From positions 39,620,001 through 39,684,000 of the forward strand of contig NC_086097.1 of assembly GCF_963921235.1 (NCBI RefSeq): a stretch of DNA of 64,000 nucleotides, written 5' to 3'. Position 1 is the stretch's first letter. Each line of letters begins with the position of its first letter. A program made the translations under genes and the position numbers. This document shows, one piece after another, positions 3,745-58,865 of this stretch. The DNA comes from Mobula hypostoma (taxonomy: Eukaryota). A model generated the notes under the pieces. It saw nothing but the letters and a program-made list of their open reading frames with translations, was not told the origin of the DNA and did no database searches.

Positions 3745-4115
3745 TAAAAATGTTTATTATAGCCACACGTACCAAAGAACAGTACAAAACTAATCTTGCA
3801 TACCATCCATACAGATCAGTTAATTACAATGGTGTATTGAGATAGCACAGATAAAACAATAACGGACTGTAGAATAAAGTTTTACAGTACAGAGAAAGGG
3901 CAGGCGGAAGGTAAGTTGCAAGGTCACAATGAAGTGGGTTGTAAGATCGAGGATCTGTTCAATAGTTTTAGAACTGTAGGATGGAAGCTATCCTTGAACC
4001 CGGTGATATGAGCTTTCAGGCTTTTCTATCTTCCGCTTGATGGGAGTGGGAGAGAGGAGGGAATGTCGAGGGTGGGTGGGATCTTGGATTATTCTGGCTG
4101 CTTTACTGAGGCTGA
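3745..4115 (-). mobile_element. Rex1/Babar-like LINE 3' end fragment
   Basis: Shares the TTTATTAT..CAC..GTACCA 3' UTR and C-terminal coding remnant with copies at about 8020-8320 and 38520-39000. Confidence 0.55.
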
Positions 4116-4534
4116 TGGCCTCATTTCTGATCTAACAGGATGTCCTTTTATTCTGAGGCTGTACTCTTTGGTCCTAGACTTTCCCCCTACTGGAAACATC
4201 TTCTCCACAAACTCTCTATCTGGCCTTTTCTATATTTGGTATGTTTATTTTTAAACATAATTTTCACAAGTTTTATGTAATTAGGATCCTGTGATTGCCT
4301 ATCATTTAGTGCACAAAATAAGGATGATATCTAATTTCAAGGTAATTCTGCCTCTGAAAATTGCTTGTATTGAAGTCGGTGAAATGCACCTATGTTACAA
4401 TATCATGTGTTGAGCATGAGAATGAAACTTAACTAATTTCTTCTCACTATGTCTTATTTGAGACTAAAATATTTTCTTGTTTTGACCTCCACTTTTGCTC
4501 CCTCAGTCCAAGTTAAATGGCTATTCTACTTTTA

Positions 4535-4748
4535 CAAACTCCATTTCCAGAAAAGTTGGGATATTTTGCAAAACGCAATAAAAACAAAAATCTGTGATAT
4601 GTTAATTCACGTGAACCTTTATTTAACTGACAAAAGTACAAAGAAAAGATTTTCAATAGTTTTACTGACCAACTTAATTGTATTTTGTAAACATACACAA
4701 ATTTAGAATTTGATGGCTGCAACACACTCAACAAAAGTTGGGACAGAG
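4535..4748. repeat. Left terminal inverted repeat of Tc1 element
   Basis: Reverse complement of 5925-6138 with scattered substitutions. AAAAGTTGGGA occurs at both the outer and inner ends of the repeat. Confidence 0.95.
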
Positions 4749-4754
4749 GCATGT

Positions 4755-5777
4755 TTACCATTGTGTTACATCACCTTTCCTTTTAATAACACTTTTTAAT
4801 CATTTTGGAACTGGGGATACTAATTGTAGTAGATTTGCAATTGGAAATTTTGTCCATTCTTGCTTGATATAAGACTTCAGCTGCTCAACAGTCCGTGGTC
4901 TCCGTTGTCTGATTCTCCTCTTCATGATGCACCATACATTTTCAATAGGAGATAGATCTGGACTGGCAGCAGGCCAGTCAAGCACACGCACTCTGTGTCT
5001 ACAAAGCCACTCTGTTGTAGCCCGTGCAGAATGTGGTCTGGCATTGTCCTGCTGAAATAAGCATGGACGTCCCAGGAAGAGACGTCGCCTTGATGGCAAC
5101 ATATGTCTCTCTAAAATCCTAATATACGTCTCAGAGTCAGTGGTACCTTCACATACATGCAACTCACCCATGCCGTGGGCACTGATGCACCCCCATACCA
5201 TCACAGGTGCTGGCTTTTGCACCTTTTGCTGATAACAATCTGGACGGTCGTTTTCATCTTTGGCATGGAGAACTGGACGCCCGTTTTTTCTGAAAACTAG
5301 CTGAAATCTGGACTCATCTGACCACAGCACACGGTTCCACAGTCTTTTGGTCCACTTGAGATGAGCTCGGGCCCAGAGAACTCGCCGGCGTTTCTGCATA
5401 GAGTTGATGTATGGCTTCCTCTTTGCGTAATACAGTTTCAAGTGGCATTTCTGGATGCAGCGACGGACTGTGTTGAGTGACAATGGTTTTCCGAAGTACT
5501 CCCGAGCCCAGGTGGCTATAATTGTCACAGTAGCATGACGGTTTCTTAGGCAGTGCCGCCTGAGGGCTCGAAGATCACGCGCATTCAACAGTGGTTTCCA
5601 ACCTTGCCCTTTACGCACTGAGATGTCTCTGAATTCTCTGAATCTTTTCACAATATTATGTACTGTAGATGTTGAAAGACTTAAATTCTCTGCAATCTTG
5701 CGTTGAGAAATGTTCCTTTTAAACTGACTAACAATTCTCTCACGAATTTTGGCACAAAGGGGTGAGCCACGACCCAT
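4755..5777 (-). pseudogene. Tc1 transposase (340 codons) with one premature TGA at 4800-4802
   Basis: ATG at 5777 (MGRGSPL...), paired-like HTH N-terminus, WSDESRF, FQQDNARPH, SPDLSPIENVW with 34 residues between the second D and the E. After ...VSPVPK* the frame continues LKSVIKRKGDVTQW* to TAA at 4755-4757. Confidence 0.93.
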
Positions 5778-5924
5778 CCTTGCTTGCAAAGACTGAGCCT
5801 TTGATGGAGGTTACTTTTATACCCAGTCATGATACCTCACCTGCTACCAATTAGTCTGCTTAATGTGGAGTCTTCCAAACCGGTGTTACTTGAACATTCT
5901 GTGCACTTTTCAATCTTATTTTAA

Positions 5925-6138
5925 CTCTGTCCCAACTTTTGTTGAGTGTGTTGCAGCCATCAAATTCTAAATTTGTGTATATTTACAAAATACAATTAAG
6001 TTGGTCAGTAGAACTATTGAAAACCGTTTCTTTGTACTTTTGTCAGTTAAATAAAGGTTCACGTGAATTAACATATCACAGATTTTTGTTTTTATTGCAT
6101 TTTGGAAAATAGCCCGACTTCTCTGGAAATGGGGTTTG
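5925..6138. repeat. Right terminal inverted repeat of Tc1 element
   Basis: CTCTGTCCCAACTTTT...GGAAATGGGGTTTG followed by TA. Confidence 0.95.
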
Positions 6139-6931
6139 TACATCATCCTTGCCTTTAACTATCTTAAATATCTAAAAATGACAAGTAATATTGAAGCAAA
6201 CTGCAGAGACTTCCATGGATATATAAATAAGAGGGTAACTGGAGTAGGTTTGAGGATCAGAGTAAAGCACAACTTTTTTTGTTCTTATTTTAAACAGCTG
6301 CACCTTTTCCCCCACCCATGTCTGCAGCACTGTAGCATCTCCACTCCAACTTGGTCCTTTCCTACCCTTTCAATTCCTCCTCAGAGTCTTAAAACATGCA
6401 TTGGCCGGGGTTAGTCATTTCTAAGTCTTGGCCATTGACAGTATCTTTTGAATGAGGTTTGGAATGGGAATTGGTTTATTATTGTCAAGTGTAACAAAAT
6501 CCTGTGAGAAACCTAGTTTTGCAAGTCGTGCGTACATTTTATTTCAAAACACGAGGCATTGAATTATACCAAGGAAAAGCCATAATGAATGCAAGATATA
6601 GGTCAAACTATAAAGGTGAAAAGATGATGAGATAATTTTCCTTGCCAAACAATTCAGGTAGAGCCTGGAGATTTTGGTAGTGGCTGTTTTTTTTTAATTG
6701 TTGACATAATTTTGGCAAATACTGACTTTGAACTAGATTTTTTAACTGAGAGTTATACCTGGAATTCAGATGTCCCAACAGAAATGTCCTGGATTGCACA
6801 TTAATACAGTATATGACCAAGAGCACAGCAGATCTTGCAATTGGTTTATTATTGTCACATGTTCTGGTTTAAGATGGTGCTGGTGTTGCCAGTGACTATC
6901 TGTCAGCAGCAAACAAAACAATGAAAACTAC

Positions 6932-7343
6932 GAAATGTCAACTGTACCTCATCCTATAGATGCTGCCTGGCCTGCTGCGTTCCACCAGCATTTTTTGTGT
7001 GTGTTGCTTGAATTTCCAGCATCTGCAGATTTCCTCGTGTCTGCGTTTTTAAATTCACTACTGCGAAGCCTCTTCCAGTGATGCCTACACTGAAGAAGTT
7101 TAGATCTTTTCTTCGACGGATCTCTTTTGCCAATCAACTTTCCAGCCCTTAGATCCACCCCTTCCCTCCTGTCTTCTACTATCATTTTGGAATCCCTCCC
7201 TCCCCCTCCTACTTTTGAATCTCTTACTATCTCTTCTTTCAGTTAGTCCTGATGACGGGTCTTGGCCTGAAACGTGGACTGTACCTCTTCCTATAGATGC
7301 TGCCTGGCCTGCTGCGTTCCACCAGCATTTTTTGTGTGTGTTG
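6932..7343 (+). mobile_element. Non-coding mini Penelope-like element with tandem pseudo-LTR ends
   Basis: 12-bp direct repeat AATGAAAACTAC at 6920-6931 and 7344-7355. Terminal block CCTATAGATGCTGCCTGGCCTGCTGCGTTCCACCAGC... occurs twice (about 6953-7006 and 7290-7343) and matches the 3' end of the PLE at 24926-26609. Confidence 0.85.
7245..7280 (+). ncRNA. Minimal hammerhead ribozyme motif, cleavage triplet mutated (GUG)
   Basis: AGTC CTGATGA CGGGTCTTGGCCT GAAA CG TG GACT: stem I AGTC/GACT, both core boxes present, G at position 17. Confidence 0.65.
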
Positions 7344-8454
7344 AATGAAAACTACTAAATACCTTAACACTTCATTGTTAGCAGTGATCTTTATTAATGG
7401 AGAGGCAGGGTTGAGGCAGGGTTGAGGCAGAGGCTGGATCAAAGCAGAGTTAAAACATCCCCAAGAGCTAGGAAAGACCCAATGTTTGATTGATTTAAGT
7501 GCCGGGCCAACTTGGAAAGGTTGGGCTTGGGCTAAATTGAGGCAGCGATGTCCAGGCCCCAGAGGGGAACAACCTGGATGATTTAAGATTTAGAAAAGTC
7601 ATAGTATTGGGACCGGAGCTGAGGGATGGGTTGGTTCTGCTTGTGATCCATGACATTTACTCAGCTCTGCACTGAACTGAGGCTGTGGTCTCCAGGTGCA
7701 GTGATGCCTGGCTTTTGCGTCTGTGGTCTAGCAATGTTTACTCTGCTCTGTGATAAACTGGTCCTGTGGCCTGCTCCAGTTGCAGTAATGCCTGGCTTCG
7801 CGTCGTTCGTAAAATTTCAGTTCTGAATGCCATTTGCCTACTTTTATTGTTTACAGGATTTGTGTTTTTTTTTCTCTCTGCACATTCAGTGTTCGATGGT
7901 CCAAGTTTTTCATGGGTTCTTTTGGGGTTTCTTTGTTTTGTGGCTGCATGTAAGACAAATCTCAAGGTTGTATAATGTATATATACTTTGTTAACAAATG
8001 TCATTTAACTTTGAACAAGATAAGAAAAGCTTGTCTTGCGTACTGTTCATACAGGTCGTATCATTACACCGTGCACTAGTCAAAATAATAACAGAATGCA
8101 GAATAAGATGTTACAGTTATAGAGAGGGTGCAGTGCAGGTAGACAATAAGGTGTGAGGTCATGACAAGGTAATATGTGAGGTCAAGGGTCTATCTTATTG
8201 TACTGGAGGACCATTCCATTGACCTATGACAGTGGGGTAGAAGCTGTCCTGGAGCCTGCTGGTACATGCTTTCAGACTTTTGTATCTTTTGCCAGATGGG
8301 AGAAGCATGCCGACAGGGTGGTTAACTCACTAGAATAATGGCCAAAAGACCTGGTGCTGTTGATCTTCAGGCAGGAGTTTAAATTAAATCACAGCGGATG
8401 GGGAATTAAAAATTTGATAACTAGTCCTCAATTTTAAACAATATCAATGATTTA

Positions 8455-8662
8455 TAAGCAAAGCGATTCTGCAGATGCTGGAAATCTTGAACAACACATG
8501 CAAAGTATTAGAGGAACTCAGCAAGTAAGGCAGCATCTATGGAGAGAAGTAGACCGTCGACATTTCCGTAAGAGTTTTAGCCTGAAACTTCAACTGTTTA
8601 CTCCCCTCCATAGATGCTGCCTGACCTGCTGATTTTCTCCAGCATTTAGTGTGCGTTACTCA
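8455..8662. mobile_element. Old inverted pair of Penelope-like tails (degraded foldback)
   Basis: GGAACTCAGCAAGTAAGGCAGCATCTATGGAG ... CTCCATAGATGCTGCCTGACCTGCTGA in inverted orientation around a degenerate ribozyme region. Confidence 0.7.
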
Positions 8663-9794
8663 ATATCAGCTGTGGTCACCATGAGATCTCAGGATCATTT
8701 TGAGGATTACTAATCATTAATTTTCTTTCGTCATGAAATCAGCAGTGAATGCAAAACAATGTGGCTGGGTTGGATTTTCTTTTCTACTGCTGATTTGCAT
8801 ATTGCTTAAAGCCCTAATGTCTGTTACGATTAAAACTAATAACCATTCTACTTCCTAAAGTGGTAATTGGTTTTGAAATTACAGGGGCATTTGCAGAGCC
8901 AAACACTGCTGATGGTAAAGTTCCTTTTTCTTGACAGAGGTAAGCACACGACCTCACGCCATGTTTGCGGCTAGGAACTGACGTTGTTATCTTATACCAT
9001 TCTCTGACTACAAGACTGCAAGGCATCACCAGTGTTATGACAGAATCAGTTGATACCATCTTACCTGCTCTATTATCTCTTGCAGTCTGAAAACAATGGC
9101 AGCATCAAAAATATTACCACAAGCAAACACCAAAGAAAGGTCTTCTCAGACAATGTCGTGAGCCCTGTAGGCCTTTGCGGGTTGCCATAGAATGCCGATC
9201 TTCTAGGTTTCTTGAGCACTTGTATTTACTTGCTGTGTTATAGAGAATGATTTATCTCGCAGTATCACTCAGTTGTCCCTCCAAGGCTCTGCTGGCATTT
9301 CTATGCCTAACCTCTACTTTCAGTCTCTTCATGGGTATTCTGCTGCTCCTCCACTCCTGGGTTGAGTCATGAGCTTGCTGTCCATGCTGCTGGGCTGATC
9401 AGGTGCCAGTGACCACCGTGACAGAGAGTCTGCTATTCCTCCACACTCGGATACGGTTCTGCGAGTGTGCACCATGACTGACAGTGTCTCAGAGACAGTC
9501 TGATGACTCCTAACCAACATGAACGATGGAGTGTCCACTTTCCATATTCCCCCTTCTACCTTGACATCCACATAATTAAAATCACTGGAAACGCCACAGG
9601 AAATCACTGTACAACTTATGAATTAGGACCAAGTGGATAACTGACCCTTCTGTGAGAAACCTTTTAATAAAAGTGACTGATTCGATTCTAAATTCAATTC
9701 CACATTCTGGTCCACCTCCAATAGCTTTTTGTTCCCTTTCTCATCCTGTTTCTATTTACCTGTGCCTCAAAATACTTTCACTGCCTTTTGAGTA

Positions 9795-24925: not shown

Positions 24926-26609
24926 ACGCAAACAACAGGAATTCTACAGATGCTGGAAATTCAAGCAACACACATCAAAGTTGCTGGTGAACGCAGCAGG
25001 CCGGGCAGCATCTCTAGGAAGAGGTACAGTCAACGTCCAGGCCAAGACCCTTCGTCAGGACTAACTGAAGGAAGAGTTAGTAAGAGATTTGAAAGTGGGA
25101 GGGGGAGGGGGAGATCCAAAATGATAGGAGAAGACAGGAGGGGGAGGGATGGAGCCAAGAGCTGGACAGGTGATTGGCAAAGGGGATATGAGAGGATCAT
25201 GGGACAGGAGGTCCGGGGAGAAAGACAAGGGGGGGGGGAACCAGAGGATGGGAAAGGGGTATAGTCAGAGGGACAGAGGGAGAAAAAGGAGAGTGAGAGA
25301 AAGTATGTGTGTATAAAAATAAATAATGGATGGGGTACGAGGGGGAGGTGGGGCATTAGCAGAAGTTAGAGAAGTCGATGTTCATGCTATCAGGTTGGAG
25401 GCTACCCAGACGGAATATAAGGTGTTGTTCCTCCAACCTGAGTGTGGTTTCATCTTTATAGTAGAGGAGGCCGTGGATAGACATGTCAGAATGGGAATGG
25501 GACGTGGAATTAAAATGTGTGGCCACTGGGAGATCCTGCTTTTTCTGGCGGACAGAGCGTAGATGTTCAGCAAAGCGGTCTCCCAGTCTGCGTCGGGTCT
25601 CGCCAATATATAAAAGGCAACATCGGGAGCACCGGATGCAGTATATTACCCCAGCCGACTCACAGCTGAAGTGTCGCCTCACCTGAAAGGTCTGTTTGGG
25701 GCCCTGAATGGTGGTGAGGGAGGAAGTGTAAGGGCATGTGTAGCACTTGTTCCGCTTACAAGGATAAGTGCCAGGAGGGAGATCAGTGGGAAGGGATGGA
25801 GGGGACGAATAGACAAAGGAGTCGCATAGGGAGCGATCCCTGTGGAAAGCAGGGGGGGGGGAGGGAAAGATGTGCTTAGTGGTGGGATCCCATTGGAGGT
25901 GGCGGAAGTTATGGAGAATAATATGTTGGACCCGGAGGCTGGTGGGGTGGTAGGTGAGGACCAGGGGAACCCTATTCCTAGTGGAGTGGCGGGAGGATGG
26001 AGTGAGAGCAGATGTGCGTGAAATGAGGGAGATGCGTTTGAGAACAGAGTTGATAATGGAGGAAGGGAAGCCCCTTTCTTTAAAAAAGGAGGACATCTCC
26101 CTCGTCCTGGAATGAAAAGCCTCATCCTGAGAGCAGATGCGGCAGAGACGGAGGAATTGCGAGAAGGGGATGGCGTTTTTGCAAAAGACAGGGTGAGAAG
26201 AGGAATAGTCCAGGTAGCTGTGAGAGTCTGTAGGCTTATAGTAGACATCAGTAGATAAGCTGTCTCCAGAGACAGAGACAGAAAGATCTAGAAAGGGGAG
26301 GGAGGTGTCGGAAATGGACCAGGTAAACTTGAGGGCAGGGTGAAAGTTGGAGGCAAAGTTAATAAAGTCAACGAGCTCAGCATGCATGCAGGAAGCAGCG
26401 CCAATGCAGTCGTCGATGTAGCAAAGGAAAAGTGGGGGACAGATACAGGAATAGGCACGGAACATAGATTGTTCCACAAAGCCAACAAAAAGGCAGGCAT
26501 AGCTAGGACCCATACGGGTGCCCATAGCTACACCTTTAGTTTGAAGAAAGTGGGAGGAGCCAAAGGAGAAATTATTAAGAGTAAGGACTAATTCCGCTAG
26601 ATGGAGCAG
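24926..26609 (-). mobile_element. Penelope-like element, 5'-truncated, with 13-bp target-site duplication
   Basis: AGTGTATTGATTA at 24913-24925 and 26610-26622. Encodes RT C-terminal half plus GIY-YIG, followed by a pyrimidine-rich 3' UTR and terminal repeat. Confidence 0.95.
25356..26597 (-). pseudogene. PLE reverse transcriptase (C-terminal half) plus GIY-YIG endonuclease, open frame but 5'-truncated
   Basis: GVAMGTRMGPSYACLF, YIDD, LPFLD, VYYKPTD, Cys pair CKRNKCYTC, GVIYCIRCSRC..LYIGET, RFAEH. No stop in the 389-aa ORF track entry. Confidence 0.93.
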
Positions 26610-28121: not shown

Positions 28122-29030
28122 TGTCACAAGGTGGTGGCTGCGAACGGATCCAAGTGCAAGACACAGACACTGAAGTACTAGGGACAGGACTAGGATACAG
28201 GGTGAGGGCTAGGACATGGACACAAAAACCGGGAACCCAGAACAGGACTGGACAAGAGAGCTAGGAGCCCTGGCTTGGACTCTGAGCCAGAGACTGGACA
28301 AGGACCCAGAACCTGGGTCTTGCCTCTGGCTCAGACCCCAGAACTAGGCAAGGACGTGACTTGGCTGGCAGGCAGGACGAGGCTGGAGTCTTCAGACTTG
28401 AGGCGAGGCTTGAGACCAGTGACTTGGGGCGAGGCTTGAGACCAGTGACTTGGGGCAAGGCTTGAGACCAGAGACTGGAGGCGAGGCTTGAGACCAGTGA
28501 CTTGGGGCAAGGCTTGAGACCAGAGACTGGAGGCGAGGCTTGAGACCAGAGACTTGAGGTGAGGCTTGAGACCAGAGACTTGAGGCTCCTCCTGGTCAGG
28601 GCGCGGATCTCCACCCGATGGAGGCAAGGGACAGGAAGGGACAGAACCAACCGCAGGGTAACCGCAATCTGGCCTGACTTACCCGACAGAGGCAAGGGAC
28701 AGGATGCATCGCAGGGTAACGGCAATCTGGCCTGGCTTACCCGACGGAGGAAAGGGACAGGAAGGGAGCTAGGTTCAGGGTGGCTCCAAGACAAGACTTC
28801 TGGCAAGACAAAGCGAGAGTTACCAGCAAGACAAGCCAAGGCTTCAGGCAATGCAAGGTGAGACAAGAACTTCTGGCGAGATGAGAATTACCAACAAGAC
28901 AAGGCAAGGCTTCAGACAAGGAAACAGAAGGCAGGGAAAGGGATACAAGGAGTAAGGACAAGAACAATCCAGCAGCCACCCCCTGGTCTCTGGAGGTATT
29001 TATGCAGCCAACCCCCTGGCTCATCTGATT
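28122..29030 (-). mobile_element. Antisense LTR-like fragment with internal minisatellite
   Basis: Minus strand has a TATA-like CATAAATA near 29000 and ends ...TTGTGACA at 28122. Internally repetitive. Confidence 0.55.
28396..28586. repeat. 26-bp minisatellite, about 7.3 copies
   Basis: Unit ACTTG(A/G)GGC(G/A)AGGCTTGAGACCAG(T/A)G, head to tail with no spacers. Confidence 0.95.
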
Positions 29031-40261: not shown

Positions 40262-40360
40262 TACAGTCCTGCCGAAGGATTCCGCCCGAAACCTCGACTG
40301 TACTCTTTCCCATAGATGCTGCCTGGCCTTCTGAGTTCCTCCAGCATTTTCTGTGTGTTG
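40262..40360 (+). mobile_element. About 100-bp Penelope tail-only insertion beginning at a degenerate hammerhead
   Basis: TGCTACAG at 40259-40266 and 40359-40366. AGTC CTGCCGA AGGATTCCGCCC GAAA CC TC GACT. Confidence 0.75.
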
Positions 40361-40959
40361 CTACAGACTCATCATGTTTTCCCAGTTCTTCAAGTGGCAC
40401 CGTCACCTTGCACTGAATCAAATATAATTTGATTTTTATAAGTTCCCCAACATGGTTCTGTGGTGTTCAATGACTGTTAGATATATAATATGACAGAATT
40501 TAATTGCGGGCACACAAAGGTAATTGACAGGCATCCAAGTACCCATTAACTTATGCTTTGAGTCTTGTAATATGGAATAGGTGGGGAACAGGGGACATTA
40601 AACTTTTTTTCTCTATTCCATTCTGTAACAGATAAATATCTTTCTCACGCAGAAAGTGCTGACATTTGTCATTGCTTTTGGGGATTAGGTAGGATCCAAA
40701 AATGCAGCATTGAATGAATTGGGGCTATTATTATCTAATCGATCTGCATCAACTCTTTCAATAATGACCTTGAAGCACTTGAAAGCTCAATAAGTAATCT
40801 ACCTACCTAGAAGTTATCTCCTGAATTTGTTAAGAACCCATGCCTCTAATGAAATAAAAATAGAAAATGCTGTCAAAACTCCACAGGTCACACAACATTT
40901 GTAGAGAAAGAAACAGACTGAGGAAGTGCAAGAAATATTGAAGGTCATAGGCTTCATAA

Positions 40960-46308: not shown

Positions 46309-46703
46309 ATAGGATGAGTATTTCAGCAGGTTTTGCACCTACATAATATTTTAATAAAGGATTAAACTGCACAGGTTATCTTAGCTTTGCCAGCTCTCTG
46401 TAGAGGGACATGTTTGTTCTTCAGATGAACTGGGTTGGCTGAGGGAAGCTCGTTCATGAGCAATTTGTTCAAGTATCCACAACATGCCATCGATTCCACT
46501 TTTCAGCTGGGGTCATCTTTGTGTCAAAGCCGATTTTTGCTTCACTCTTCACCTCAAAGTAAGAAGGATGGTGTCACCACGATAACCCATTCTGCATCTT
46601 TACCATCTCCTTCAGTTGTATGTTTGTATTGTTAGGTTGTTGCAGATACAGAAAATATAAGTTGATGTTTTGAGCGTAAGTATGTGAACTGTAACACTCA
46701 GAG

Positions 46704-46927
46704 CAACATACATCAAAGTTGCTGGTGAACGCAGCAGGCCAAGCAGCATCTATAGGAAGAGGCGCAGTCGACGTTTCAGGCCGAGACCCTTCGTCAGGAC
46801 TAACTTCCTTCAGTCTCGGCCTGAAACGTCGACTGCGCCTCTTCCTATAGATGCTGCTTGGCCTGCTGCGTTCACCAGCAACTTTGATGTATGTTGCTTG
46901 AATTTCCAGCATCTGCAGAATTCCTGT
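46704..46927. mobile_element. Young foldback Penelope-tail mini-insertion with 14-bp flanking duplication
   Basis: TGTAACACTCAGAG at 46690-46703 and 46928-46941. Perfect 86-bp inverted repeat (46702-46787 and 46813-46898) with a 25-nt spacer. Confidence 0.93.
46766..46801 (-). ncRNA. Minimal type I hammerhead ribozyme motif (intact core)
   Basis: Minus strand AGUC CUGACGA AGGGUCUCGGCCU GAAA CG UC^GACU: stem I AGUC/GACU, CUGANGA and GAAA boxes, GUC triplet, helix III reduced to the palindrome ACGU. Confidence 0.8.
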
Positions 46928-47717
46928 TGTAACACTCAGAGTGTTGGTTTCCAGCAGGTAAGCTTACAGAGAAGCTGACGGAGATACTGAGTAATTTTTA
47001 CCAGTGGATGCCAGGTCATTCTTTAAGTTGAAGCGTATAGACATGCAGTATTTCAGCGGATATTGCACTAAAAGAAATAACTTCTGCTGAGGATATTTTG
47101 GCTATAAAACCTGTCAATAGAGGAACATGATTCTAATATGTAGCATTCATTAATGGTTGTTCAGTTCACTGAATATTGTACTCTGGAGAGTAATGTGTTA
47201 ATGACTGAGAATCCATTGATTGTGCAGGATCAGGACATTCACTGAAGGTCTGAATTCAGATAAAACATGACCAGGTAGATAAATTTACAAAATACCAGAT
47301 GAAGTCTGGGATGGAATTTAATGTGGTCATTTACCAGTCTGAGTAGAATAGACATGTAAATGTGTCCATGCCTTGTGTCATTTGGTTTAAATAAATCACA
47401 GGAGTATTTATTGGTAATGATTTTTTCCGAACAGTTTCAACAAGTTTCTAAGGTATTTTCTATGTCAGTCCGTCATGCAATTTGTGTTCCTTTGTCATGT
47501 TGTGGGCTTTATAGAAGGAATTCTAGAATTATATTATTATCAAGGACAGCTCTGCATGAAATATTAGAGTTGTTATACAATGGTCATGAAATCTGTTGTT
47601 TTGCAGAAGCAGTACATTGCAATACCTAATAATAAAGACTATAAATTACAATAAATAGATATACAGTATTTACTCCATACCTGACGGTGATGCAACCAGT
47701 TAGAATGCTCTCCTCTG

Positions 47718-55565: not shown

Positions 55566-58500
55566 TTCCAGATACACTTACATTTACACTTCTTCCCCTC
55601 ACAGATATCAGGTATCAGAACACTTCCATCAAAATATCGACATTACCACAACATCCTATACAAAAGCCCTTATTAGTATAGCAGACAGGTTTACATCTAT
55701 ATACTGCAGAAAAGGTTGCTATGTTTTATGAAAACTATTTGTTTTTGAGTGTACCATACATGTCAAAAAGTCCAAAGGAATCTATTCCATGATTAATTTA
55801 CTCCAACCATAAAGTTCAGGGGCCTTATCGGATATCCAACAAAGTAAAATGCTCTTCCTCGCACAAAAAGTCAGGATGTTAAAAAGTTTTTTCTGATGTG
55901 CATTAATAATACGACTTCTGGGTAAGCCTAAGAGAAAAGACACTGGGTCCAGTTCAAGCTCCATCTTCAGAATCTTTTCCATTTCACCCAAAGTACCACT
56001 CCAGTATGCCTGAAGTTTGGGACAAGTTTGGGTGAAAGTTCCAGTATTTACATTTAGAACACAATGGAGAAACCCCAGTCTTAAATTTTGAGAGGCGATC
56101 TGGAGTCAGATGGGCTCTATGCAGAATTTTGAGTTGCAGTGCTTTAGTTCTATTACAAACTGAGATTTTCTTTGCATTATCACAGATGTCTTCCCACGTT
56201 TCAGCTGTAATTTCTACTCCCAGCTCTTCCTCCCAGACCCTTCCCAGCTGCTCTGCCTCTCCACAAGAACATTCCCTCAGGATGCTGTAAAAAGTACTGA
56301 TGGAGACTTCACCCTTAGAACGAAACACCCTCTTTTCCATGTCAGAATCAGTTAACAATGATTTTTTTTTCTGTATATAATCTCTTATCTGAAAGAAATG
56401 AAAAAGTCCTTGTTGGGTATGTTAAATTTCTGTACTATTTGACTAGAAGACATCATCATTCCTTCATCAAACAAATCTCCTAGATGGAAAATACCCTTAG
56501 AAATCCAAAGTTTAAATCCAGAATCCATTATGCCTGGTTGAAAATCTGGACTGCCGGTTATTGGAGTGAAGGGTGATATTTTCGCTGCATTGCCCTCAAG
56601 ATTGCACTTAACAAAAAAAAAGAAGAAAATTAGAACATCATCCGCATACAATATAATTTTATGTCCAAAGTCTAGATCATGCTGAATTATCTTTGGGCTT
56701 AATATTTAAATATGCTGCTCCATGGTCAGAAATAGCGATATTTCCAATTGTGCAGGATACAACTAAATCTAGGAGCGTTTTGTGGATTAGAAAAAAAGTC
56801 TATTCTGGTGTAACACTTGTGTGGATTAGAAAAAATCTGAAGTCTTTGTCTGAGGGATATAACAACCTCCAGACATCCACAAGTCCTAGTTCTCCACATA
56901 AGCCCATGATTTGTTTGGACTGTGAGGAGAGCAATGGGGGCCTACTAGGCACTCTGTCCATCGATGGGTCCATGAGACAATTAAAATCCCCACCTAAAGT
57001 AATGTTTTGTATTGTAAAGCTTGTAAGTTTGGAAAAAGCATCTATTTGGAATTTGGGAGGGTGAGCTGGAGAGCAGTAAACATTGAGAATACCATATTCC
57101 TCTCCATATATTGAAGCCTTAACAATCACAAAACTCCCATACTTATCCTTAATGCAGTCTAATAAAAAGGTAGGTTCTTCGTAATTAAAATGGCCACCCC
57201 TTACTCCTGGCATTAAAAGATGAAAAATAGACTTGATCAAATCCACTGTGTTGCAGTTTTAGATGTTCTTTATCATTTAAATGTGTCTCCTGCAATAAGG
57301 CTATGTCCACCCTTTCCTTTTTCAGATTTAGTAGGGTTTTCTTTCTCTTGATTGGTGAATGACTCCCCTTAATGTTCCAGTGCACAGTTTTAATATATTA
57401 CTCGTCATAACCCTTTATAACAGCCATTTGACTCCAGAGGAGAAGAAACCCGACTTAAGATCAGCTGAGCAGCAATAAGTGATTAAAAAAAACACACAAA
57501 AAAAAACAAAGTGCCAACAGCACTGAACAAGAGGACTTACCCCACACTTAAAGGGCATATCTGAACCTTCTAGCACCCCATATTCCGCCCCACTGCCAAT
57601 ATGGCATTTAACATAGTCAAAAATGAAAACGGCATAATTTATCAATCCATCGATTTGTTACTGTCATGTTTAAACTCCTTCAGGCTGGAGCAGCACCGCT
57701 AATTTAAGCAAATAATGAAACTACATTAATCAAAACAAACACGTTACCCATCCTATAGGATATTTTGCCGTCGAGTAATGAAAAGGTAAAATAAAGTAAC
57801 CATCGAGCATGTTATCACCCATAACCAGGGCTACACAGTATATACATTCTTTTGCCCAACGTGTCTACAAAAGTTTTAGCTTTGCCAGGAGAATCAAATA
57901 CCTTGGTGGTCCCGTTGCAGGTGATTTTCAGCACCGCTGGGTACAACATAAAGTACTGGATTCCGGATTCCCTCAGCCGCTTCTTTACCTGGTCGAATTC
58001 CTTTTGCTTCCGAATAACGGCTGCCGAAAAATCTTGGAAAAACATAAGCCTGGATCCCTCTTATTTTAAAGCCTGGGCATCAGACCCGTGGCATCTCGAA
58101 GCTTCCATCACTCTTTGCTAATCACTGAAATTATGGAACTGCACGAGGACAGGTCGAGGGCATTGGTCTGGGCCTGGTTTTGGAGACAGCGTACGATGAG
58201 CTCTTTCCACTTTAATGCGTCCAACCTTGCTTTCCAAATCAAGGAAATTAGGCAGCCAGCCCTCAAAAAGCTTTGCTGGCTGGCTGCCTGCCTTCTGTAC
58301 CTTCAGGTAGACTGATAATCCGTATGTTCTTCCTCCTACCTCTGTTCTCAAGATCATCGATACGGTCAGACAGGCTTTGAACTTGCTTTTCTAGCACCTG
58401 GATGCAGCTTTGGGCCTGATCAGTTACAGTCTGTACCGTGGAGACTCGGCCCTTGGCCTCGGTCGTTCTTGTATCAATATTTTTAAGCTCCAGTGTGTGG

Positions 58501-58865
58501 TTCTGGAGTGTTAGACAGAGTGGACCCAGCTTCTCGTCCATCATTTTGGATATGTTCTCCATAACTTCCTGAATTACTTGACAAAAAGCAGGGTCCAACG
58601 TGTTAGCATAGCTAGCAGTGGCTAGCTCTTCAGCCCCGGGCGAGCACTCTGTGCAGTCCATCCTGGACGCCTTTTCAGTACTTTTCGATGGCATGGTGTT
58701 GAAGCAGCTCAAGAAAAAATACTCATCAATGTTCATGTCATTAGATCTGACACCTGGGCATTTAAAGAAAAGTTGGAACGGATAGGCTTATATGTGAAAT
58801 TATCAGTGTTGCGGTGCTGAGCTCAGCAAAGCAGACCTTTCACTGCGCTGCCATCTTGAAAACCC
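55566..58865 (-). mobile_element. L1-clade LINE, 5' end intact, ORF2 internally deleted
   Basis: 5' end GGGTTTTCAAGATGGCAGCG. ORF1 from ATG 58694 (coiled coil, DLENRGRRKNIRI, ERAHR, FQDFS, YPAVLKI). ORF2 from ATG 57408 (WNIKG, LQETH, GGDFN, SDH), fused by deletions to LYADD and the C-terminal KILHRAHLTP..CSKC region. Confidence 0.92.

Follow-up and report, generated by a model that had tools for sequence, protein, structure and literature searches.

The window analyzed here is a stretch of 64,000 nucleotides of Mobula hypostoma contig NC_086097.1 (39,620,001 to 39,684,000), and its minus strand carries a minimal type I hammerhead motif within a 224-nt, ORF-less head-to-head insertion (46704-46927; Table 1). 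Element positions are numbered from the C of the CUGACGA box, which is 0; stem I is thus formed by -4 to -1 paired with +28 to +31, and the predicted cut falls at +27/+28. The minus-strand letters of the motif and the location of the predicted cut agreed with the original prediction, both by sequence and by descriptor, and the CUGANGA box, the GAAA box and the NUH triplet are all present. Our minimal-hammerhead descriptor matched once in the 64-kb window and had 0 matches in all 100 of 100 first-order Markov resamples. An Rfam scan of the window returned five matches at E<=1 with no hammerhead family among them, the two best being chance miRNA matches to the inverted repeat; none of the Rfam models finds this minimal hammerhead of Penelope-like elements (PLEs).

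Table 1 Features of the insertion, its hammerhead motif and a related copy in the window.
Feature	Position	Strand	Basis or content
Target-site duplication, left copy, 14 bp	46690..46703	+	sequence; empty site
Short (left) arm, element terminal repeat -8 to about +93/+95, ends at short 3' end site, no tail	46704..46805	-	blastn vs natural copies
Long (right) arm, terminal repeat -15 to about +124/+127 including tail	46805..46927	+	blastn and intact-junction comparison
Target-site duplication, right copy, 14 bp	46928..46941	+	sequence; empty site
Perfect 86-nt inverted repeat made by the two arms	46702-46787 / 46813-46898, 25 nt apart	.	inverted-repeat search
Minimal type I hammerhead motif, 36 nt	46766..46801	-	sequence, descriptor scan, pair counts
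Stem I 5' strand	46801-46798	-	sequence
CUGACGA box	46797-46791	-	sequence
Unpaired A (before stem II)	46790	-	pair counts
Stem II	46789-46786 with 46781-46778	-	pair counts
GAAA box	46777-46774	-	sequence
Palindromic ACGU (reduced helix III)	46774-46771	-	sequence
Predicted cleavage site	46770/46769	-	sequence
Stem I 3' strand	46769-46766	-	sequence
Older 5'-truncated copy of the same family	24929..26600	-	RT end, GIY-YIG domain, 3' UTR of about 300 nt

The architecture of the motif was largely as proposed. Helix III is indeed collapsed to a four-nucleotide palindrome, ACGU (15.2-16.2), which places the motif in the published class of PLE minimal hammerheads (PMC4209133). Stem I comprises four Watson-Crick pairs and one G.U. 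The short stem II that had been described is also present, in a corrected register: one unpaired A follows the core, between 9 and 10.1, and four pairs come after it, which in the window copy are G.U, G-C, G-C and U.G. With this bulge, the first pair (10.1-11.1) holds in 43 of 46 copies (G-C in 24, G.U in 17 and A-U in 2) and is broken in three; in the register without the bulge, the first pair forms in 18 of the 46. The term "intact" is justified for the letters of the predicted ribozyme and reaches no further than the letters. In folding predictions, the monomer's lowest-energy fold (-10.0 vs -6.0 kcal/mol) is one with the core base-paired.

The two arms of the insertion lie on opposite strands, and only the short one retains the motif. 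A 17-nt gap at 46813/46814 of the long arm removes the 5' strand of stem I together with the CUGACGA box, leaving that arm without a hammerhead; the reference for this gap is the same head-to-head junction, which occurs intact 38 times in the genome. The empty site was recovered on a contig of another organism (sequencing run X22), which joins 46542-46689 directly to 46928-47042. The motif was originally placed in a Penelope-like terminal repeat, and terminal-repeat sequence is what surrounds it, albeit as a solo head-to-head insertion with no ORF-bearing element here. Because the arms are on opposite strands and one lacks the CUGACGA box, there is no dimer partner at the locus, and a cis dimer of the two arms was ruled out on the same grounds. 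A read-through RNA over the insertion is predicted to bury the motif in an 86-bp hairpin, with hammerhead stem probabilities of 0.0; the predicted values are 0.49-0.66 if the RNA starts at -4. The ribozyme of the window insertion is thus predicted to be unable to fold, and the insertion is likely a dead by-product. We also considered a single palindromic master element and rejected it, since the loop occurs on either arm and the junctions vary.

The rest of the window is populated by further repeats. Another head-to-head insertion, older and from a related subfamily, lies at 8466-8666, its arms 73% complementary and 17 nt apart. A Tc1/mariner-type transposon, whose inverted repeats of 216 nt match at 95% and which has a DDE_3 frame of 336 aa (4800-5810), spans 4533-6140, and a 26-nt tandem repeat runs for at least seven copies in register at 28352-28611. 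No host gene was found in the window on scanning 22 of its 31 frames of at least 120 aa. The frame at 58263-58787, which has a weak Laminin_II match, was disfavoured as a host exon and resembles a piece of LINE-1 ORF1, which by its motif we take it to be; Pfam gave no confirmation.

The motif belongs to a very abundant family. By pattern count, its first 31 nt (-4 to +26) occur as exact copies 37,402 times in the genome. The 111-nt arm is found at 100% identity in four other places among the 40 that were scored out of 781 candidates. For the ORF piece at 25359-26600 there were 239,589 first-look candidates, from which 100 scored relatives show 92-94% identity. The older copy that contains this piece (Table 1) has a decayed hammerhead near 25028-25062. 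At the fetched loci with long ORFs, a terminal repeat follows the ORF in 20 of 20 cases and a hammerhead pattern in 18 of 20, and an identical motif starts 300 nt after the stop of the RT and GIY-YIG ORF. Partial tandems place the ATG of the ORF at +166, i.e., the motif also lies 166 nt ahead of the ORF.

The long ORFs encode an RT with a C-terminal GIY-YIG domain in a single ORF, with the motifs DKG, GVAMG, YIDD and GIY-YIG. Pfam reported RVT_1 (E 2e-6 to 6e-4) and GIY-YIG (E 0.001-0.013) in three of three long ORFs, all below Pfam's cut-offs. With these ORFs, the assignment of the motif as the minimal hammerhead of a Penelope-like element was borne out at the family level. The frame at locus L044 has a C-x4-C-x2-C linker at residue 878, and a CX2-5CxxC linker between RT and EN marks the Neptune and Nematis clades (PMC8557442); typed by this linker motif, the family appears to be a young, very abundant Penelope-like retrotransposon of the Neptune/Nematis type. 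Partial tandems, inverted 5'-truncated copies and a one-sided tail of 30-40 bp, all traits of endonuclease-positive PLEs, are found in the family.

Copies of the young subfamily end at two sites. In a blind sample of 1.264 Mb, the 3' ends of 42 young copies fell at +88 to +99 (17 copies) and at +117 to +136 (25 copies). All seven head-to-head pairs in this sample have one short and one tail end, as do 48 of 56 pairs at fetched loci, about 25 of which were selected through one shared junction; none of the 56 has two ends of a kind, and eight have an end outside both ranges. If ends were independent, such pairing would have P of about 6e-16. This strict rule of one short and one tail end would fit reverse transcription that is primed from both target strands and starts at two sites. 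Two similar units of the form CCAGCA...TGTTG, each a predicted hairpin, lie at +72 to +93 and +103 to +126 (window 46875-46896 and 46906-46929), directly preceding the two 3' end sites. At a further locus (L149:468-1702), motif-to-ORF RNA from -4 is followed by an 8-A run and then by -4 to +96 again, and this insertion looks like an RT jump from the 5' end of the RNA to a prematurely polyadenylated 3' end.

Conservation of the motif was assessed on 132 copies in the blind sample that were found by the downstream part alone. Of these, 53 kept the pyrimidine-rich native upstream sequence (30 older and 23 young) and 79 were excluded as truncated. Among the 30 older copies, the majority-letter share was 0.90 for the 5' strand of stem I, 0.87 for the core, 0.85 for stem II and 0.78 for the 3' strand of stem I, compared to 0.61 in the upstream flank and 0.66 at +32 to +43. 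The expectation that the core would be better kept than its surroundings therefore held across subfamilies with respect to the immediate flanks; loop II (0.80) and +44 to +66 (0.91) are as conserved as the core. Contigs from four sequencing runs, each labelled as a different organism, show loose ends piled up at -4 and +32, indicating that divergent subfamilies share only this block. The anticipated covariation of the stems did not emerge: stems I and II scored 0.113 vs 0.117 for shuffled alignments, with 331 of 500 shuffles as high, in 46 copies from one genome whose columns barely vary. This alignment retained 46 of the 53 copies, four having failed to map and three references having been dropped, one for a gap and two as duplicates. 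Core position 6 is C (A6C) in an older lineage, which accounts for 10 of 53 core matches. Its subfamily, with a CUGCUGA/CUGCCGA core, is seen in the window at 40265-40368 and in 10-12 other places in the blind sample.

The large number of near-identical copies, in the tens of thousands, means that models of the hammerhead can be tested by counting junctions, a junction being scored by pattern wherever two non-native bases stand directly before element sequence. Reverse transcription of cut RNA would be expected to yield copies that begin at +28. Among at least 10,994 copies of one subfamily, 60 junctions were found at +28 and 52 at the control position +24 (p=0.51), corresponding to rates of at most 0.55% and 0.47%; a further 14 loci have a blunt fold at the cut, which the junction pattern misses. 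Junctions exactly at -4, the 5' edge of stem I, numbered 1,929 of 37,402 (5.2%), about 9.5 times the +28 rate, with the two counts drawn from different subfamily sets. A control at -12 gave 154 junctions, a count without a denominator of its own. The excess at -4 and the lack of one at +28 suggest that most templates are uncut and that they frequently terminate at the leading edge of stem I.

Inspection of individual loci was in line with this pattern. We fetched 20 of the first 22 listed -4 junctions: 14 were inverted arms with scattered partner ends, five joined flanking DNA (three of them with a target-site duplication within 7 nt) and one was a same-sense internal join, and none of the 20 had other native upstream sequence or a different subfamily before -4. 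By eye, G preceded about 23 of the first 100 listed -4 junctions, which is no excess of the kind that a copied cap could leave. Four of 20 junctions at +28 pair with a -4 arm via stem I itself, and short inverted matches clearly steer some junctions. Across 30 loci taken in genome order, breaks fell at -23 to -16 (6), -12 to 0 (6), +1 to +8 (4), +13 (1) and +25/+28 (2), and 11 run on; the +25/+28 share (2 of 30) exceeds the genome-wide rate, in small numbers. In a rough by-eye tally of 100 listed copies, about 44 break between -16 and +31, with 13 at -5 to -3 and at most three at +25 to +28. The blind-sample tally at -4 was left out of the rate, as some of its breaks are older subfamilies with other upstream sequence. 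Judging from these DNA junctions, the RNA probably has its 5' end at about -4, at a start site in initiator-like sequence (the initiator consensus being YYANWYY). An internal TATA-less promoter has been described in the pLTR of D. virilis (PMC2377424).

A different origin for the -4 edge is splicing or microhomology, the upstream sequence being the 3' end of an intron at which RT stops or jumps. Branch-like CTCAC/CTAAC, a pyrimidine tract and AG at -8/-7 and -4/-3 do precede the motif, with the AG at -4/-3 in 46 of 51 untruncated copies and the branch-like motif in 19 of 51; in the L146-L148 arrays, a GT of the ORF directly abuts the base that follows the AG at -8/-7, resembling a spliced join, and PMC4209133 places the end of the D. 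virilis intron at the 5' end of helix I. The second, weaker cluster of breaks at -24 to -15 points the same way. However, the 20 fetched -4 junctions have no common 5' exon, their partners being target DNA or variously ending inverted arms, and few junctions fall at the -12 control within that tract; we consider this origin unlikely. Within element positions -24 to -3 (for example L157:1384-1405), the weaker breaks at -24 to -15 could be RT stops near a branch point. It is also conceivable, and in our estimate somewhat improbable, that the motif is maintained as a structure or promoter element rather than for catalysis. Conservation of loop II and of +44 to +66 at the level of the core, stems that covary no more than shuffles, the core-pairing monomer fold and the A6C lineage all speak for this, given that in another hammerhead A6C cut the Mg2+ cleavage rate more than 10,000-fold relative to Mn2+ (PMC7151607). 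Yet no core residue is lost in the young subfamily, which also keeps the NUH triplet; cleavage, either weak or aided by protein, is known for related minimal hammerheads (PMC4209133, PMC11167929), and conservation begins and ends at the stem I edges of the motif.

The original prediction had inferred that paired ribozymes process the RNA ends. On this account, put forward in PMC4209133 together with dimer and trimer constructs that showed weak cleavage, two hammerheads in a tandem transcript pair, cut at GUC and set the ends of the RNA that is reverse transcribed, perhaps after circularisation. The family does offer suitable material. Besides partial tandems with two same-direction motifs, we found short same-direction tandem arrays with units of 222 nt (L016:694-1609, the same as L143), 310 nt (L146-L148), 202 nt (L145) and 262 nt (L150). 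Each unit consists of one hammerhead and the start of the ORF, which is retrozyme-like, and two or more successive units with a whole hammerhead each are present at L143 and L146-L148 and absent at the window locus. Stem I across units is predicted at 0.37-0.87 in the short arrays, and junction counts are blind to circles, since cutting and religation would leave the site unscarred. Dimer cleavage is reportedly the subject of Lunse et al. 2017. Against pairing stand the +28 junctions, which are at background while 5.2% of copies begin at -4, a cross-unit ACGU helix III predicted at <=0.001 (by a model that ignores tertiary contacts), the lack of a usable partner at the window locus, stems without covariation above shuffles, the spread of the A6C lineage, and an anole element that inserts in vitro without catalysis (PMC11167929). 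We therefore regard end-setting by paired ribozymes as distinctly unlikely, and as far as DNA can test it, this functional inference was not supported. Cleavage of RNA that is never used as a template may be compatible with the junction data.

Compared to the minimal hammerheads that Cervera and De la Pena (2014, PMC4209133) described in the pseudo-LTRs (pLTRs) of metazoan PLEs, the motif has the same core boxes, a helix III that is only a palindrome, a helix I of 4-5 bp and an unpaired base between 9 and 10.1. The genomic setting is also alike: fish Xena, Poseidon and Neptune pLTRs, mostly solo truncated copies with some pairs on opposite strands. Helix II, in contrast, has 4 bp here as opposed to 7-8 in Schistosoma, the young subfamily has G.U rather than G-C at 10.1-11.1, exact copies number at least 37,402 as opposed to 4,000-9,000 in coelacanth and Xenopus, and covariation was not found here in the 46 copies from one genome, whose columns barely vary. 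Similarly, the family parallels PAc, the Poseidon element of Anolis carolinensis studied by Frangieh et al. (2024, PMC11167929). In vitro, both target strands are cut and extended from two RT start sites; the hammerhead is assisted by protein, and insertion can do without it; the main substrate is RNA that has not been cut, and no reads are reported to end at the cut. Two start or end sites spanning the tail, extension of both target strands, an uncut template and no ends at the cut appear to recur here in the DNA copies. The PAc ORF begins in stem II with the start sites inside the ORF, whereas here both lie in the 5' UTR, the ATG being at +166, and the present element has the Neptune/Nematis C-x4-C-x2-C linker.

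The shape of the insertion has precedents as well. Head-to-head inverted pLTR insertions (PMC3846280, PMC8557442) share the inverted 5'-truncated copy, the palindrome at the junction and a tail of 30-40 bp at one end, with target-site duplications of 8-10 bp as opposed to 14 bp here. The palindromes were read as self-priming on an antisense template (PMC3846280) and the tail as endonuclease resolution (PMC8557442); compared to these readings, the rule of one short and one tail end may fit two primed nicks better. Animal non-LTR retrozymes (bioRxiv 10.64898/2026.07.22.740005), which are short tandems derived from PLE pLTRs with one type I hammerhead each, match the arrays at L016/L143, L145, L146-L148 and L150, unlike the window locus, a single inverted insertion with no tandem array.

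Taken together, we consider it probable that the window holds the hammerhead of a young PLE in a likely dead head-to-head insertion, and that the template of this family is mostly uncut with a 5' end near -4. In the mechanism that we propose, the element protein would nick both target strands 14 bp apart, with the short start site (about +92 to +97) used by the cDNA primed from one nick and the tail site (about +127 to +133) by the cDNA primed from the other. The two cDNAs would then pass through the uncut hammerhead and join head to head just 5' of the motif via 1-2 nt of homology, with one arm losing 17 nt at joining or later. The RNA that is copied would be mostly uncut and have its 5' end most likely at or near -4, the first base of stem I, which would put the hammerhead at the front of the element mRNA. 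Any cutting would occur in trans or in tandem RNA, probably assisted by protein, on RNA that is seldom used as template.

The window motif is a real, ordinary member of the known class of PLE minimal hammerheads in a likely dead copy, and earlier publications already cover the motif and where it lies, the dimer proposal and the inverted arrangement with a tail. For the pile-up of junctions at stem I we found no published report; Lunse et al. 2017 and the supplementary material of PMC4209133 and PMC11167929 may bear on it. The role of PLE hammerheads is described as still open in PMC8557442. The junction counts argue against ribozyme-cut templates and single out -4 and the two end sites as checkable positions. 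A bolder and rather doubtful reading is that the mRNA begins with the hammerhead as its first 36 nt, which would not be needed for template ends and would instead serve as a switch, gated by dimerization or by protein, to take off the cap end; a protein dimer would use two fixed sites on the uncut RNA to prime both target strands. If true, a regulatory role would replace the published model of end processing and circles for PLE hammerheads, and head-to-head insertions would be explained in one step.
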